In this document: one piece after another, positions 3,515 to 61,869 of the stretch
Layout of the letters: each line of letters starts with the position of its first letter
Numbering within the stretch: position 1 is the first letter of the stretch
Assembly (NCBI GenBank): GCA_000004695.1
Contig: CM000153.2
Coordinates: 5,088,001 to 5,152,000 of the forward strand
Direction of reading: 5' to 3'
Source: Dictyostelium discoideum
Taxonomy: Eukaryota
DNA: 64,000 nucleotides
The notes under the pieces: model-generated
Seen by the model: the letters and a program-made list of their open reading frames with translations, nothing else
The model's database searches: none
Told to the model about the DNA's origin: nothing
Program-made: the position numbers and the translations under genes

Positions 3515-19567
<16,053 letters not shown>

Positions 19568-52536: not shown

Positions 52537-53493
52537 ATGAATAAATTAATTTCATTCTTATTAGTATCATTATTTTTAGTTGCTGTAGCTTCTGCTCAAA
52601 CCAGCTACCCAAATCTCCCAACTGAATTCACTGCCGATGTTGAAATTCAAGTTGAAACCTCTCAATCACCATTCCCAATGCCATCAATCAGTGGTACTAT
52701 GTATTATGCTTACCAAAAGAGAGTCCAAAGAATGGATTCAACCGATCCAATGTTTGGTCAAACCGTTACTACCCTCGACCGTTATGATCAAATGAACGAA
52801 TATAACTTTGCTTCTGGTGATTGCAAATGTTCACCAATCTCTGGTGATATGCCACTCTATACCGTCTTACCAGGTAGCACTTATCAAGGTCAATCAAATG
52901 TCAATGGTGTTGAAAGTGACCAATGGATGTTCTCTTTATCACCATCTGTCAACATTTCACTCTTTGTTGACCCAACTCGTGAAATTTTAACTCAAGCTGT
53001 TATGCTTGTCAGCCAACAAGGTACCACTATGACCACCACCATCACCTTCTCAAATGTTAACACCAACTCAATCTCTGATGATATCTTTGAAGTCCCAGCA
53101 TACTGTCAATGCCCAACCCCAGCCCCACCAGTTATCCCACCAGCTAATGCTTGTCCAGGTAACCCACCATCTGGTTGTAATTGTGCACCAGCCTTAAGCT
53201 TCTGTTCTGAAGTTAACTATCCAATCGATTCATCTGATGCTCCATCAGTCGATGCTATGATCGAACAAACTTTCAATAACTTTGTTTCATTCGCTCAACC
53301 AACTGCTGCTTGTGCTTCAAACATGAAAAGCTTTTTATGTGCAACTTTATTCCCCCTCTGTACTGGTTCAATTATCCCAGTTTTACCATGTGCTAACCTT
53401 TGCCCAAGCTGTAGCTGTGGTGCTGGTAACAATACCTGTGCTGCTGCTTTACCAAATACCGTCTGTACTCAATATGGTAATGGTTTCTGTTAA
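52537..53493 (+). CDS. Secreted protein with a C-terminal Frizzled-type cysteine-rich domain (CRD) and no 7TM region, 318 aa
   Basis: Seen in sequence: signal peptide 'MNKLISFLLVSLFLVAVASA'. The C-terminal 'AACASNMKSFLCATLFPLCTGSIIPVLPCANLCPSC' matches the Fz CRD core 'F[LF]C[AS]xxxPxC...PC..LC'. There are 10+ Cys. Codon usage is GC3-biased (acc, ggt, tct, ttc), typical of highly expressed Dictyostelium genes. Confidence 0.55.
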   Translation: MNKLISFLLVSLFLVAVASAQTSYPNLPTEFTADVEIQVETSQSPFPMPSISGTMYYAYQKRVQRMDSTDPMFGQTVTTLDRYDQMNEYNFASGDCKCSPISGDMPLYTVLPGSTYQGQSNVNGVESDQWMFSLSPSVNISLFVDPTREILTQAVMLVSQQGTTMTTTITFSNVNTNSISDDIFEVPAYCQCPTPAPPVIPPANACPGNPPSGCNCAPALSFCSEVNYPIDSSDAPSVDAMIEQTFNNFVSFAQPTAACASNMKSFLCATLFPLCTGSIIPVLPCANLCPSCSCGAGNNTCAAALPNTVCTQYGNGFC

Positions 53494-56134: not shown

Positions 56135-57250
56135 TTATGCATAGTTGACTGTAGAAGTAATTAATTCATTTGTTAAAAATGTTGCATAGGAAAAAGGAAA
56201 GCTCTTATATAATTTTCTATATCCTTGAGTTTTTACTAAATTAGTTGCTATTGAGATTGGATTAGTTGACAATAAATTAACAGAATTACCAAGATAACGT
56301 TGAACGAATAAAAAAGACAATTGACAAAGAACTGTTTCGCATGGAACGATAGCCAACGTTCTTAAAAAGGTTTTAGCGTATATTGATTTAATTATGAGTG
56401 TTGAATTTCTCCAAAATGTTGATTTTGGATTCTCTAATGATTTAGATTCGACATATTCAATTAATATATTATGTAATTTATTTACAATACCCTTTATAAG
56501 TCTACCTGTAGTATGCATCGCAACTGATGAAATAAAAGCGTAGGCTTCATTTTTAAAATTTAATTTTCCAGTTACCCCATCTTGACAAAGTACAACTTTT
56601 TTAATTAATTCCAAAAATGATAGTTTGTTGGCAGTTTGTATATAACATTCAAGTGAGAATGCAACAAATGATGTATAACACCATAGAATTTCATCCATTA
56701 ATTTACCCATTGTTGAGGATGGATAGATTAATTCATCCTTTAATTTAAAAAGTGGTCGTAGTAAGGAAGGAGCAAAGGTTTGTGCTAAAATGATTTTACC
56801 TAATGAAAATGCATTATTATTTCTATTGAATGATTGAAGAACTCCAAGTGAGTTAGAATAACTTGGAGTTGTATTTATAACAAATGAAGCTATTTTAAAT
56901 CTTGCTGCTAAAATTCCCATAATTGAGAGTAGGGTATGATTTTTTTGATTTAATGATTTAAAGTATTCAAGTTCAAAGGTGACCATCTCATCATGTATTT
57001 CTCTATCATAATAATCCCTTAACCTTTTATCTGAAATTACTGAATAGGCCGCATCGAAACTCTCTGTTTTTTGTTTATCATTTTCGAAATTACTTCAAAC
57101 TTTTTTATTTAAATGAGCAATTTTATCGATAGTATCTTCTTTTTTAACTCCTAAAAATCTATAAAGTTCACCACAATGACATTCATGTGTTGCATAAAAT
57201 ATTTTTACTTTATCTTCTTCAGTAATTGGAAAAATTTGTGTATCTTTCAT
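56135..57250 (-). pseudogene. J-like domain + divergent mitochondrial-carrier fusion gene, copy 1, interrupted by an in-frame TGA at about 57094-57096 (possible recent pseudogene)
   Basis: Seen in sequence: the reverse strand reads 'MKDTQIFPITEEDKVKIFYATHECHCGELYRFLGVKKEDTIDKIAHLNKKV*SNFENDKQKTESFDAAYSVISDKRLRDYYD...MVTFELEYFKS...'. It continues as ORF 56135..56986. The frame is otherwise uninterrupted and colinear with copies 2 and 3. TGA replaces the Lys/Arg codon, AAA or AGA, of the paralogs. Confidence 0.55.
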
Positions 57251-57532: not shown

Positions 57533-58657
57533 TTAAAGGTCTGTTGATATATTAGAAATAAGGTATTCTTCTAATAAAAGGGAGATATAAGAAAATGGTA
57601 AAGATTTATATAATTTTCTATATCCTTGAGATTTTACTAAATCAACTGCTAATGAGATTGGATTGATTGATAATGATAGAGTTGGTTTACCAAGATAACG
57701 TTGAACATATAAATAAGAGTATTGAGAATGAATTGCTTCATATGGAACGAGGAACAATGACATAAAAATACTTTTAACGTATATTGATTTAATTATGAGT
57801 GAGTTTCTCCAAAATGTTGAATTTGGATTCTCTAATGATTTCGACTCAACATATGCTTCAACTTTATTATAACCAATTCTTAAGAGTCTACTTAATGCGT
57901 ACATTCCAAATGATGAAATAAAAGTGTAGGCTACATTTTTAAAATTTAATTTTCTAGTTACCCCATCTTGACAAAGTACCACTTTTTTAACTACTTCCAA
58001 AAACGATAAATTGTGTGCAGTTTGCATATAACAATCAAGTGGGAAGGTTATAATAAATGTAGAGAGATAGGAAACAATTTCATCTGTTAATTTACCAACC
58101 ATTGAGAATGAATAGGTGTATTTATCCTTCAATATAAAAAGTGGTTGAATTATCATTGCAAGAGTTGAAGGAAGCATTGCTTGTGTCAAAACGATTTTAC
58201 CTAATGAAAATGCACTATGTTTTTTAATGAAAGATCTGAGAATTTGAAGTGAACTAATTGATGGTGGACTTGGAGTTGTATTTATTACAAGTGAGATTAT
58301 TTCCAATGGTGCTAATAAAGCTCCAATTGTTGAGAGTAGGGTTTGATTTTTTTGATTTAATGATTGAAAATATTTAAGTTCTTCTCTAACCATATCATCA
58401 TACAATTTTTCATCATAGTAATCTCTTAATCTTTTATCTGAAATTATTTCATATGCTGCATCCAAGCTGGCCGTGACTATTTCATCATTTTTAAAATTAC
58501 TTTTAATTTCTTTATATGTATGAGCAATTTTATCAATAGTATCTTCTTTTTTAACTCCTAAAAATCTATAAAGTTCACCACATTTATGATACTGAATTGC
58601 ATAACAAATTTTTTTAACATCTTCGATAGTAATTGGGAAAATTTGTGAATCTTTCAT
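57533..58657 (-). CDS. J-like domain (no HPD) fused to a divergent three-repeat mitochondrial carrier family (MCF/SLC25-like) domain, copy 2, 374 aa
   Basis: Seen in sequence: the N-terminal 'GELYRFLGVKKEDTIDKIAHTYKEIKSNFKNDE..ASLDAAYEIISDKRLRDYYDEKLY' aligns with J-domain helices II-III (DYYEILGV...EIKKAYRKLA.KYHPD...EAYEVLSD..KR..YD). 'FKND' stands in place of HPD. There are three MCF-like repeats: 'ALLAPLEIISLVINT...FSLGKIVL', 'ITFPLDCYMQTAHN..VVLCQDGVTRKLNF' and 'FLVPYEAIHSQYSYL...DLVKSQGYRKLYKSLPFSYISLL' (cf. Px[DE]xx[KR] ... EGxxxLYKGxxPxxxR). Confidence 0.7.
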   Translation of the reverse strand: MKDSQIFPITIEDVKKICYAIQYHKCGELYRFLGVKKEDTIDKIAHTYKEIKSNFKNDEIVTASLDAAYEIISDKRLRDYYDEKLYDDMVREELKYFQSLNQKNQTLLSTIGALLAPLEIISLVINTTPSPPSISSLQILRSFIKKHSAFSLGKIVLTQAMLPSTLAMIIQPLFILKDKYTYSFSMVGKLTDEIVSYLSTFIITFPLDCYMQTAHNLSFLEVVKKVVLCQDGVTRKLNFKNVAYTFISSFGMYALSRLLRIGYNKVEAYVESKSLENPNSTFWRNSLIIKSIYVKSIFMSLFLVPYEAIHSQYSYLYVQRYLGKPTLSLSINPISLAVDLVKSQGYRKLYKSLPFSYISLLLEEYLISNISTDL

Positions 58658-59351
58658 TTGTTTTTATTTAATGTTAATAATAATTGATTTATTTTCTTTT
58701 TTTTTTGATTAAAAGTGAAAATAAAAAAAAAAAAAATTTTTTGTTTTTTATTAGATATTTCCCAAAAAAAAGATATTTATGTGGGGTAAGCCATAATTTA
58801 TTTTATTTTTTTTTTAAAAATTAAAAACAAAAAAAAAAAAAAAGAATTGTTGTGGAAATAGAGATAAATTAATTAAAAAAAAAAAAAAAAAAATTAAATG
58901 ATTTTGAAAGGGAAACAATAGTTTTACTTGATTGATAAAAGGAAAATGATAAATAAGGTAATGATAACTCGAGTGATGAAAAAATTACTTTAAAAGAGAA
59001 TGAAGATTATGTTATCAATCAAGAACAAGACAAGAAGAAATCATGGTTACTCGAGATATGGAAATTTAATGAAGATTTAGAATTCATATGACGGTAAAGA
59101 AGATGGTGTTTATTATGAAATGGACAAGATGGTGATGAAGAGGATGAAGAATTTAAATAATTATGTAAAAAATTATGTTTAATTCTAAAATGTGATTCAA
59201 AAAAATGCATTATTTCAATTCAATTTGAGTTTAACTTAATTTTTTTTATTTATTGCAATTTTTTTTTTTTTGTTTTTTATATTTTCTATTGTTTTTATAT
59301 ATTTTGAAATTTAATATTTCAGGAATTTTCCAAAGATGGATGGTAAAAATA

Positions 59352-59778
59352 TTAAACAGTATTGCAAGTCAAAACAGTTGAACCTTTGTTTGTTAAGGTT
59401 AATTCAAATCCTCCAAAACTACGGTCATATTCGCCAAAGTCATTAAATGTATCCTGTTCAGCTGGTGAGACTCCAGCTTGCATTTGAATTGTACCAACAC
59501 CACCCCCATCAACTTCACAATTAACAACTGTTGGTTTTGTTGCCCATGTTGGCTAAAAATATATAAAAAAATAAAAAAATAAAAAAAATAATAAATAAAA
59601 GGTTAGGATTTTAAAATGAAATAAATATATTATAAAATTTAATAAAATTTACAATTGATCCTTGAGATTGTCCTGGTTGTAAAGTCCATGGTCTAAATAA
59701 TAATAATTTTAGGTTATTTATTAGATACAATTTCAATTAAAAATGAAAATTTTTTTTATCTTTATATTACCCAGCCAT
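59352..59778 (-). CDS. Small three-exon gene (82 aa) with GC3-biased codons, missed by the ORF track: complement(join(59352..59552,59653..59692,59771..59778))
   Basis: Seen in sequence: 'aaaaaATGGCTGG|gtaata' gives exon 1, MAG. An 'ttatttag' acceptor leads to 'ACCATGGACTTTACAACCAGGACAATCTCAAGGATCAATT|gtaaat'. A 'ttttag' acceptor leads to 'CCAACATGGGCAACAAAACCAACAGTTGTTAATTGTGAAGTTGATGGGGGTGGTGTTGGTACAATTCAAATGCAAGCTGGAGTCTCACCAGCT...ACTTGCAATACTGTTTAA'. The protein is 'MAGPWTLQPGQSQGSIPTWATKPTVVNCEVDGGGVGTIQMQAGVSPAEQDTFNDFGEYDRSFGGFELTLTNKGSTVLTCNTV'. The lengths are 8+40+201 = 249 nt = 83 codons, with consistent phases. Confidence 0.5.
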
Positions 59779-60726
59779 TTTTTATTTAATTTTTTAATTT
59801 ATTTAGAAAATTTTAAGATGTTAGAAAATTTTATAATTATTTAATTTTTAATTATTTAATAAAAAAAAAAAAAAAAATTTAAATATTTTTTTTTTTTTTC
59901 TCAAAAAAAAAAATCAAATTTTAATTCTTAAAATAAATAATTAAAATTCAAACAATCTATTTTTTTTTGGGCATTATAAGAAAAGATTATTTTTTATTGT
60001 GATTTTGATAAGTAAGTTGGTTCTTCTCTAAACAAAAAATAGAAAAGAGGTTTTGTTTTTAAGTTTTCTCCACAAAATATTAAAAAAAAAAAAAAAAAAT
60101 TTATTTTTAACCAAAACTTTCCAAATTAGATTTTTTTTTTTGGGTGAATTTGGCAATTTTTTATTTTTTAAAAAAATTAAAATAAAAATAAAAAATGGTT
60201 GTAAACGTGTTGTTTAAATTGACTTTTAGTACTCTTTTTTTTTATTAATATTATTAAATAATTCCAATTTTTTATGGGCATTATTAGAATTTATTTTGTA
60301 AATATGGTAAAAATCATTTTTATGTTTTTTTTGTTTTTTTTTTTGTTTTTTTTTTTGACCAGTTAGGTGTCTCTTAATTATCCAAAAGTTTTTTTTTTTT
60401 TTTAAAAAAAGGCATTATTTGCAAATGATAATTCAAAAAATAAAATAAAAAATAAAAAAAAATAAATGCCACAATTTTAATTTGTTATGACTTTAAATTT
60501 ATTTTTTTCTTTTTTTTTATTTTTTATTTTTTATAATTTTTATGATTAATGCTTTTAACAAAATACCACAATTTAGAAACACTTTTAAATATTTATTTTA
60601 ATTTGATTTTGCTTGGAACTGGTTTTAATTTTTTGTGATAATAAATATTCACTTAAAAAAAAAGTTTCACAATCTTTATTATAATATACTAATAAATCCT
60701 TGTTTTTTTATTTATTAATTTTAAAT

Positions 60727-61869
60727 TTATTCTGAATATTCTAAATCTCCTTTTAAAAAAGAGTATACAAATCCTTCCAATAAATGTATTAAATAGGAAA
60801 ATGGTAAAGATTTATATAATTTTTTAAATCCTTGGGTTTTTACTAAATCAACTGCTAATGAGATTGGATTGTTTGTTAATATTTGAACTGGGTTACCAAG
60901 ATAACGTTGAACATATAAATAAGAGTATTGAGAATTAATTGCTTCAAGTGGGGCTAGAACCAATGACATTAAAATACTTTTAACGTATACTGATTTAATT
61001 AAGAGTGCGTTTCTCCAAATTGCTGAATTTGGATTCTCCACTGATTTCGATTCGATATATCCTTCCAATTTATCAACTCCAATTCTTAAAGTTTTACTTA
61101 ACACATAAATTCCAAATGACGAAATAAAAGTGTGGGCTAAATTTTTAAAATTGAATTTTCCAGTCACCCCATCTTGACAAAGTACAACTTTTTTAATCAC
61201 TTCAAAAAATGATAAATACTTTACAGTTTGTACATAACATTCAATTGGAAATATAACAATGAATGATGAAAAGTAGTTTATAATTTCATCTGTAATTTTA
61301 CCGGTTTTAGAGAATGGATATGCGAATTTATCTTTTAATCTGTAAAGTTGTTGTTGAACCAATATTCCAATAGTTGATGGAAGAACTGCTTGTGCTAAAA
61401 AGATTTTACCCACTGATAAAAACCCATTATTTTTAAAGAACGATTGAAGAATTTTCATTGAACTAACTGATGATGACGAATTTGGTGCAGTGTGTATAAT
61501 AACCGATACCATTTCCAATGGTGCCAAAGCAGTTCCAACCATACTGAGAAGAGCATTATTTCTTTTACTTATTGATTGATTATATTCAAGTTCTATTCTT
61601 ACCAACTCGTTATAAAAATTTTTATCATAGCAATCTCTTAATCTTTTATCTGAAATTATTGAATATGCCACATCTAAACGTTCAAGAGTCATTTTATCAT
61701 TTTCAAAATTACTTCTAATTTCTTTATATGTAAGAGCAATTTTATCAATAGTATATTCTTTTTTAACTCCTAAAAATCTATAAAGTTCACCACATTGACA
61801 ACCATCAAAGGCATAAATAATTTTATCAACATCCTCTTGAGTGATTTGAAAAATTTGTGTATCTTTCAT
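60727..61869 (-). CDS. J-like domain + divergent mitochondrial-carrier fusion, copy 3, 380 aa
   Basis: Seen in sequence: 'GELYRFLGVKKEYTIDKIALTYKEIRSNFENDK..LDVAYSIISDKRLRDCYD' (J-like). Three MCF-like repeats: 'ALAPLEMVSVIIHTAP..FLSVGKIFL', 'IVIFPIECYVQTVKY..VVLCQDGVTGKFNF' and 'VLAPLEAINSQYSYL..DLVKTQGFKKLYKSLPFSYLIHLL'. Colinear with copy 2 at about 60% identity. Confidence 0.7.
   Translation of the reverse strand: MKDTQIFQITQEDVDKIIYAFDGCQCGELYRFLGVKKEYTIDKIALTYKEIRSNFENDKMTLERLDVAYSIISDKRLRDCYDKNFYNELVRIELEYNQSISKRNNALLSMVGTALAPLEMVSVIIHTAPNSSSSVSSMKILQSFFKNNGFLSVGKIFLAQAVLPSTIGILVQQQLYRLKDKFAYPFSKTGKITDEIINYFSSFIVIFPIECYVQTVKYLSFFEVIKKVVLCQDGVTGKFNFKNLAHTFISSFGIYVLSKTLRIGVDKLEGYIESKSVENPNSAIWRNALLIKSVYVKSILMSLVLAPLEAINSQYSYLYVQRYLGNPVQILTNNPISLAVDLVKTQGFKKLYKSLPFSYLIHLLEGFVYSFLKGDLEYSE

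Follow-up and report, generated by a model that had tools for sequence, protein, structure and literature searches.

The small minus-strand gene described here is a genuine spliced, translated and developmentally regulated gene of Dictyostelium discoideum, and it encodes a free-standing DUF8244 domain with a predicted jelly-roll fold. It is almost certainly DDB_G0286957, an already annotated gene of D. discoideum chromosome 4 whose 8.6-kDa acidic protein (82 residues, pI 4.1) has one DUF8244 domain and no signal peptide. An exact-sequence lookup found the 82-aa product identical over its full length to EAL63976.1, XP_637488.1 and UniProt Q54L15, deposited under the name [quoted passage not shown]. 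A preliminary description of the window (the whole 64-kb stretch of DNA that was analysed) had listed the gene as unannotated. The NCBI and UniProt entries contradict this; the model has been part of the AX4 annotation since the publication of the genome, and the present work is not a gene discovery. The explanation proposed below joins the annotated DUF8244 gene, its fold, its expression and a mechanism as a binding module. Taken as a whole it is tentative, and its chance of being right in every part falls somewhat short of even.

The gene has a twin on chromosome 4, DDB_G0287047 (Q54KX8), which lies outside the window. The two proteins are 99% identical, with G56A as the sole difference; codon 56 is GGC in DDB_G0286957 and an Ala codon in the twin. 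In a tblastn search, no second copy of DDB_G0286957 was found elsewhere in the 64-kb window, which together with the single substitution points to a very recent duplication at another site of the chromosome, or to gene conversion there.

The coding sequence comprises 249 nt in three exons. Splicing of the letters joins the exons across GT..AG introns with consistent phases and gives the 82-aa product (Table 1). The introns are short and far more AT-rich than the exons. The exons, the GTAATA and GTAAAT...TAG introns, the phases and the protein string of the preliminary description were all reproduced exactly, and the start context is of the Dictyostelium type that it had reported (AAAAAATGG at the ATG). 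It had also placed all exons under the size cutoff of the ORF track. Indeed, the longest ATG-ORF of the region has 43 aa, and a track with a 60-aa cutoff would therefore skip the gene. The splice junctions restore the family motifs MAG/PW and I/PTW (the slash marks the junction). MAGPW, in which the MAG of exon 1 is joined to exon 2, is the N-terminus conserved throughout the family. Because the bacterial homologs, which are intronless, have both motifs uninterrupted, both junctions, including that of the 8-nt exon 1, are independently validated. A search of Rfam gave no match across 58-61 kb.

Table 1 Features of the DDB_G0286957 gene, of its surroundings and of bacterial DUF8244 loci. Positions are those of the window unless a locus is named
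Feature	Position	Strand	Length	Remarks
Exon 1	59771..59778	-	8 nt	ATGGCTGG; start codon, Ala and two leading bases of Gly3
Intron 1	59693..59770	-	78 nt	GTAATA...TTTAG; GC 0.12
Exon 2	59653..59692	-	40 nt	Rest of Gly3 through Ile16; tblastn segment PWTLQPGQSQGSI, 100%
Intron 2	59553..59652	-	100 nt	GTAAAT...TTTAG; GC 0.07
Exon 3	59352..59552	-	201 nt including TAA	Residues 17-82; stop at 59354-59352; bulk of the predicted DUF8244 jelly-roll, with motifs QAGxSPxE, RxFGG and NxG
Candidate polyadenylation signal AATAAA	59249..59254	-		First after the stop, 98 nt past TAA; putative
Motif TGGGCATTAT[AT]AGAA, copy 1	59968..59982	+	15 nt	190 nt upstream of ATG; tentative cis element
Motif TGGGCATTAT[AT]AGAA, copy 2	60275..60289	+	15 nt	497 nt upstream of ATG; tentative
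Flanking "MCF-like" paralog	56135-56986	-		No Pfam match at E<=0.01
Flanking "MCF-like" paralog	57533-58657	-		No Pfam match at E<=0.01
Flanking "MCF-like" paralog	60727-61869	-		Mito_carr, 20.9 bits (gathering score 22.3)
GC-richer, purine-skewed patch	58900-59165	+		Just downstream of DDB_G0286957, opposite strand
ORF with expression-type codon bias	52537-53493	+	318 aa	GC3 0.29, ACC/Thr 0.54, GGT/Gly 1.00
Partner gene, Streptomyces loci L006-L015	about 6257-6533		91 aa	10-12 nt past the DUF8244 stop
Partner copy, Limnoraphis locus L017	6454-6795			58% identical; ~200 nt downstream
ORF directly upstream of DUF8244, locus L002	2371-2625		84 aa	DUF8244 gene cyanobacteria-like
ORF directly upstream of DUF8244, locus L003	37-291		84 aa	DUF8244 gene cyanobacteria-like

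The gene is flanked by three "MCF-like" paralogs. Their assignment as mitochondrial carriers is poorly supported, as one of them matches Mito_carr under the gathering score and the other two have no Pfam match (Table 1). The patch just downstream of DDB_G0286957 reads like a frame-broken acidic coding sequence (...SWLLEIWKFNEDLEFI / YDGKEDGVYYEMD / GQDGDEEDEEFK, ending in a stop). It could represent a small gene of several exons or a fragment that has decayed, and no homolog of it occurs elsewhere in the 64-kb window.

The preliminary description had further attributed a strong codon bias of the expression type to the gene. GC by codon position is 0.52, 0.51 and 0.17, and the GC3 of 0.17 lies within the range of 0.11-0.29 given by 20 other ORFs of the window (at least 200 aa each). 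All four Phe codons are TTT and none is TTC, ACC accounts for 1 of 11 Thr codons (0.09), GGT for 4 of 12 Gly codons (0.33), and C/(C+T) is 0.24. The enrichment of TTC, AAC, ACC and GGT that marks translational codon bias was not found; the values are ordinary for the window, and the claimed bias has to be abandoned. The accompanying observation that GC-rich codons stand out from the AT-rich DNA was right as to the exons, with a GC of 0.40, but not as to the third codon position, and TTC never occurs in frame. The excess at positions 1 and 2 is explained by the amino-acid composition (12 Gly, 11 Thr; Gly/Thr/Pro/Ala-rich) and not by synonymous choice. Expression-type bias is seen elsewhere in the window, in the 318-aa ORF listed in Table 1, the product of which is secreted-looking and Cys-rich and has a sub-threshold match to the Fz domain.

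DDB_G0286957 and all its relatives bear the precomputed Pfam label PF26736 (PF26736.1), named DUF8244 in gene tables. The product had been said to belong to no recognisable family; it belongs to one, albeit uncharacterised. No papers on the gene IDs, the UniProt IDs, PF26736 or DUF8244 were found in the full-text literature. An hmmscan against a copy of Pfam without the PF26736 model gave no match, cupins included, and PADLOC and NCBIfam gave no significant match for the DUF8244 protein. To collect the family, HMMER was run exhaustively with a profile built from three sequences, which returned 42 cluster representatives at E<=1e-3. About 39 were left after the removal of three repeat artefacts, the long matches P0007, P0031 and P0044, which are translations of repetitive DNA. 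For our own family profile, an untrimmed alignment was swamped by N-terminal extensions (6 matches), and a trimmed alignment was used instead. Our profiles recover DDB_G0286957 together with other PF26736-labelled proteins. Members mostly have 80-90 aa and share the motifs M-A-G-P-[W/F/Y], IPTW, QAGxSPxE, RxFGG and NxG as well as an invariant Thr24. According to the alignments and the per-column conservation, DDB_G0286957 is a typical member, with a single domain, the A-G-P-aromatic N-terminus and all of the other motifs.

The family ranges over four dictyostelid species, one glaucophyte, Streptomyces, Pseudonocardia and filamentous cyanobacteria. D. discoideum has three members (DDB_G0286957, DDB_G0287047 and DDB_G0269702), D. 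purpureum has four (DICPUDRAFT_93131, _92003, _71595 and _73554), and Heterostelium album has PPL_11560. The members of Acytostelium subglobosum, of the glaucophyte Gloeochaete and of Pseudonocardia xinjiangensis have a signal peptide. Ten Streptomyces species and the cyanobacteria Microseira (twice), Hydrococcus and Limnoraphis came to light in a scan of genomes. The scans of genomes and of viral contigs used an alignment of the bacterial subgroup, the full DUF8244 alignment being too divergent, and no DUF8244 was found in viral contigs with this subgroup alignment. The contig of one member looks eukaryotic and has genes for Tic22, a desaturase-cytochrome b5 fusion and SAM-domain proteins. 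The orthologs in D. purpureum and other dictyostelids that the preliminary description had proposed to look for are thus at hand.

A neighbour-joining tree of these short sequences, drawn without bootstrap, places DDB_G0286957 beside three D. purpureum paralogs that are divergent, at 35-42% identity. DDB_G0269702 is grouped with an 82%-identical D. purpureum ortholog and with the Acytostelium and Heterostelium proteins. The paralogs DDB_G0269702 and DDB_G0286957 are 52% identical and have the same length class and motifs. Judged from the tree, DDB_G0286957 sits in what appears to be a fast-evolving dictyostelid subclade, and DDB_G0269702 does not. Bacterial members fall into a group of their own, where the Streptomyces sequences are nested among those of cyanobacteria as the sister of Limnoraphis (66-70% identity). 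This nesting suggests horizontal transfer between the phyla, which in the Streptomyces and Limnoraphis lineages would have included the partner gene described below.

The transcript evidence that had likewise been proposed as a check exists in published RNA-seq abundance tables. Supplementary file 5 of PMC6198379 lists the values of Parikh et al. 2010 anew, supplemented with RNA-seq of cell types. From hr00 to hr24, DDB_G0286957 is listed there with 43, 17, 19, 929, 363, 69 and 46, and in the remaining columns, in order, with 0, 9, 3.7, 53 (spore), 7.3 and 2.0 TPM (vegetative) (PMC6198379). The values for DDB_G0269702 from hr00 to hr24 are 0.8, 1.5, 1515, 932, 1098, 690 and 588, followed in the remaining columns, in order, by 365, 1282, 74.8, 5.9, 1938 TPM (stalk) and 0.07 (PMC6198379). 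DDB_G0286957 mRNA is therefore near-silent in growth, shows a burst at 11-12 h (tight mound / tip) and then declines, with some message in spores. This 12-h burst with some spore message differs from the sustained prestalk/stalk expression of DDB_G0269702. In a second time course, independent of the first, sheet filter_UP of additional file 7 has DDB_G0287047, the twin, in its UP_Hr11_rapid column (PMC4403905). As the twins are near-identical, RNA-seq reads may be mis-assigned between them.

Protein has been detected as well. In a life-cycle proteome of 2026, DDB_G0287047 is up in fruiting bodies (logFC +3.2, adjusted P 0.015), and DDB_G0269702 is up in culminants (logFC +8.6), with its peak at culmination (PMC12821622). 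According to an in-silico digest, the only tryptic peptides of a size suited to mass spectrometry are SFGGFELTLTNK and GSTVLTCNTV. Both are common to the twins, so that the protein evidence applies to the pair and not specifically to the DDB_G0286957 copy. The absence of transcripts and of a conserved reading frame had been named as grounds for discarding the gene. Both are present: the RNA-seq tables record the message, and the frame is kept in D. purpureum, Heterostelium, Acytostelium and beyond. As for the control of the burst, the pattern TGGGCATTAT[AT]AGAA could be a cis-regulatory element. It has 2 matches in 64 kb against 0.03 expected, both in the intergenic region upstream of the gene, for a motif that was chosen post hoc.

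The DUF8244 domain is very probably an eight-stranded jelly-roll beta-sandwich. AlphaFold2, run with a 17-sequence alignment, predicts for DDB_G0286957 eight beta-strands and no helix (pLDDT 94.4, pTM 0.80); with a three-sequence alignment, pLDDT is 74. Structural neighbours of the model include MG domains of bacterial alpha-2-macroglobulin, pirin and other cupins, the collagen-binding domain of ColG, the jelly-roll of Tk-SP, YomS / XepA, and PirA. In Foldseek searches against PDB and BFVD, nothing was found at E<=1e-3, which argues for a small jelly-roll of generic type for which no homolog has been solved, and a sequence search of DDB_G0286957 against PDB gave no significant match. GOLD (p24/TMED) and bacterial collagen-binding / PPC domains are 3-14% identical to DDB_G0286957 and have no profile match with it. 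Such domains occur within larger proteins that are secreted or membrane-bound; DDB_G0286957, in contrast, is free-standing and leaderless.

Conservation is distributed unevenly over the model. The mean column information of the N-terminus and loops b2-b3, b4-b5 and b6-b7 is 2.45 bits, against 1.61 for the opposite loops (Mann-Whitney p=0.015). The strand topology of an antiparallel sandwich, as opposed to measured distances, would bring the N-terminus and these three loops together at one pole. In relatives with a signal peptide, a lipobox or a TM anchor, the point of cleavage or anchoring lies directly before the A-G-P motif. A free N-terminus thus appears to matter, and the domain appears to be extracellular in some lineages. 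Taken together, these features suggest a single functional surface to which the free N-terminus belongs. The D. discoideum protein itself begins directly with the DUF8244 domain and has no hydrophobic N-terminal segment. Taken over 12 residues, its Kyte-Doolittle hydropathy reaches at most 0.60 within the first 36 residues, in agreement with the signal peptide having been reported as lacking.

Other readings of the gene and its product are conceivable. An exon of just 8 nt and the abundance of GT and AG dinucleotides in AT-rich DNA might raise the suspicion of a spurious model, in which short ORFs and GT..AG were aligned by chance. This has next to no probability: the spliced product can be aligned over its whole length with a family of 39 members (E to 1e-17 for the paralog on another chromosome), the junctions restore conserved motifs, the AlphaFold model reaches pLDDT 94, the mRNA has been measured and is under developmental regulation, and peptides have been seen by mass spectrometry, so that chance alignment is refuted. 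The earlier reading of an unannotated gene, the codon usage of which would mark constitutive high expression, is hardly more credible, even though the exon GC of 0.40 compares with 0.07-0.12 for the introns and the mRNA peak at 12 h is high (929). It is refuted by the annotation of the identical product as DDB_G0286957, by the codon counts (GC3, TTC, ACC and GGT all ordinary for the window, and the GC excess at codon positions 1 and 2), and by an expression that is a transient developmental burst, with only 2 TPM in vegetative cells. A further reading makes the protein a small metalloenzyme of the cupin type, or else one subunit of an oligomer, either a cupin or a nucleoplasmin-like chaperone. 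We regard this as very unlikely. There is no histidine anywhere in the DDB_G0286957 protein, which excludes a cupin-type metal centre, and the family is without a conserved His or acidic set of metal ligands. The domain is also shorter than a typical cupin domain. Sequence similarity to solved structures is absent, identities in the structural alignments are 3-21%, and GOLD and collagen-binding domains align over 80-81 of the 82 residues, compared with 69-72 for cupins.

What the protein does can be proposed at a lower level of confidence. From the model and by analogy, DDB_G0286957 may be a lectin-like or matrix-binding, non-enzymatic binding module, a possibility that we consider open to considerable doubt. 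With 82 residues and few catalytic ones, the protein is too small and poor for an enzyme, and the conserved pole together with the extracytoplasmic versions in other lineages suggests a ligand-binding module. A ligand would be bound at the pole where, in the predicted sandwich, the invariant A-G-P-aromatic N-terminus would meet the conserved loops IPTW, QAGxSPxE and RxFGG. The likeliest ligand would be a glycan or a wall or matrix polymer. Support for carbohydrate binding is indirect and consists of the predicted jelly-roll, the conservation of aromatic and polar residues at one of the poles, and the developmental expression. As the D. discoideum proteins have no signal peptide, an extracellular role would need a hypothetical export route. 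The protein would be made in the cytosol and might act after unconventional release or cell lysis, with a possible role in adhesion or matrix organisation, or in the protection of the fruiting body.

Leaderless lectins that are induced in development are known, namely the discoidins of Dictyostelium and the fruiting-body lectins of fungi. DDB_G0286957 would resemble them in being small, leaderless, predicted to be all-beta and induced at multicellularity. It is unlike them in that no sequence relationship and no specific fold relationship was found. The discoidin-type F5/8-C, beta-trefoil and galectin folds are absent from the top structural matches.

Two observations, a TIR fusion and the partner gene of bacteria, point away from the binding-module reading and toward a role in conflict systems. 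The fusion is P0010 (249 aa), with TIR_2 at the N-terminus (40.1 bits against a cutoff of 28) and, at the C-terminus, a DUF8244 that is 43% identical to DDB_G0286957; it comes from a JGI metagenome. The partner is a 91-aa gene (MPWTFDKSRMEV...FQIRLSQSSRATFLV...LQLAGHT) with 92-100% identity among the Streptomyces loci, in 10 of 10 of which it follows DUF8244 (Table 1). A copy accompanies the Limnoraphis gene and has a hydrophobic, signal-like N-terminal extension. Beyond the partner, the Streptomyces flanks differ between species and are not syntenic, and the cyanobacterial gene is solitary among unrelated housekeeping genes. A conserved neighbourhood was thus rejected for the cyanobacteria and for the Streptomyces flanks beyond the 91-aa gene. 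No match for the partner was found in Pfam, PADLOC or NCBIfam. In PDB, its C-terminus (FQIRLSQSSRATFLV...LQLAGHT) has a weak match, at an E of 1 and hence not significant, to the C-terminal region of 7xbj, an insecticidal toxin of 40 kDa. A separate observation concerns the 84-aa ORF directly upstream of a cyanobacteria-like DUF8244 gene (Table 1). Its N-terminal region is hydrophobic and its C-terminus (...HFCYFYWNWCY) is rich in aromatic residues and Cys, and it may be the precursor of a secreted peptide; genes of the Sipho_Gp157, LysM and CAP-like types share its contig with the DUF8244 gene.

Type II toxin-antitoxin cassettes consist of two small, tightly coupled, mobile genes. The layout of DUF8244 and the 91-aa gene looks like such a mobile two-gene cassette. 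By this analogy, DUF8244 would be a sensor or adaptor module of conflict or immune-type systems and would not bind matrix glycans, a reading that we judge improbable but worth keeping in sight. In the multicellular development of Dictyostelium, the proteins would then sense a ligand that signals non-self or danger, or counteract a partner resembling a toxin, which is an equally unlikely proposition. The TIR_2 fusion speaks for this reading, as do the presence of the partner in all ten Streptomyces despite flanks that are not syntenic, the 58%-identical Limnoraphis copy and, weakly, the 7xbj match. However, the TIR fusion is known from a single 918-bp contig, the toxin match is not significant, and the databases named above are without a match for either DUF8244 or its partner. 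The partner is also missing from three of the four cyanobacterial loci and from loci L001, L002 and L018. No homolog of it was found in the 64-kb window, where DDB_G0286957 therefore has no adjacent partner of the toxin-antitoxin kind. Moreover, secreted or lipoprotein forms of DUF8244 and a signal-like Limnoraphis partner are a misfit for a cytoplasmic toxin-antitoxin pair. The binding module remains the preferred reading.

A broader and more speculative view, to which we give only a slim chance, is that DUF8244 represents a new class of small, free-standing recognition modules that spread horizontally among multicellular microbes (dictyostelids, Streptomyces and filamentous cyanobacteria). 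Bacteria would use the module with the toxin-like 91-aa partner, and some eukaryotes would carry it in TIR fusions. In Dictyostelium, the stage- and cell-type-specific paralogs would be effectors of innate defence or of self-recognition in the fruiting body.

No member of DUF8244 has been characterised, and the copies in Dictyostelium offer convenient access to the family. They are small, strongly and specifically induced at the transition from unicellular to multicellular life, and they have a confidently predicted structure with a clear conserved surface. Furthermore, the patchy spread across kingdoms, the bacterial two-gene cassette and the one TIR fusion provide testable hypotheses for a family that has so far been blank.
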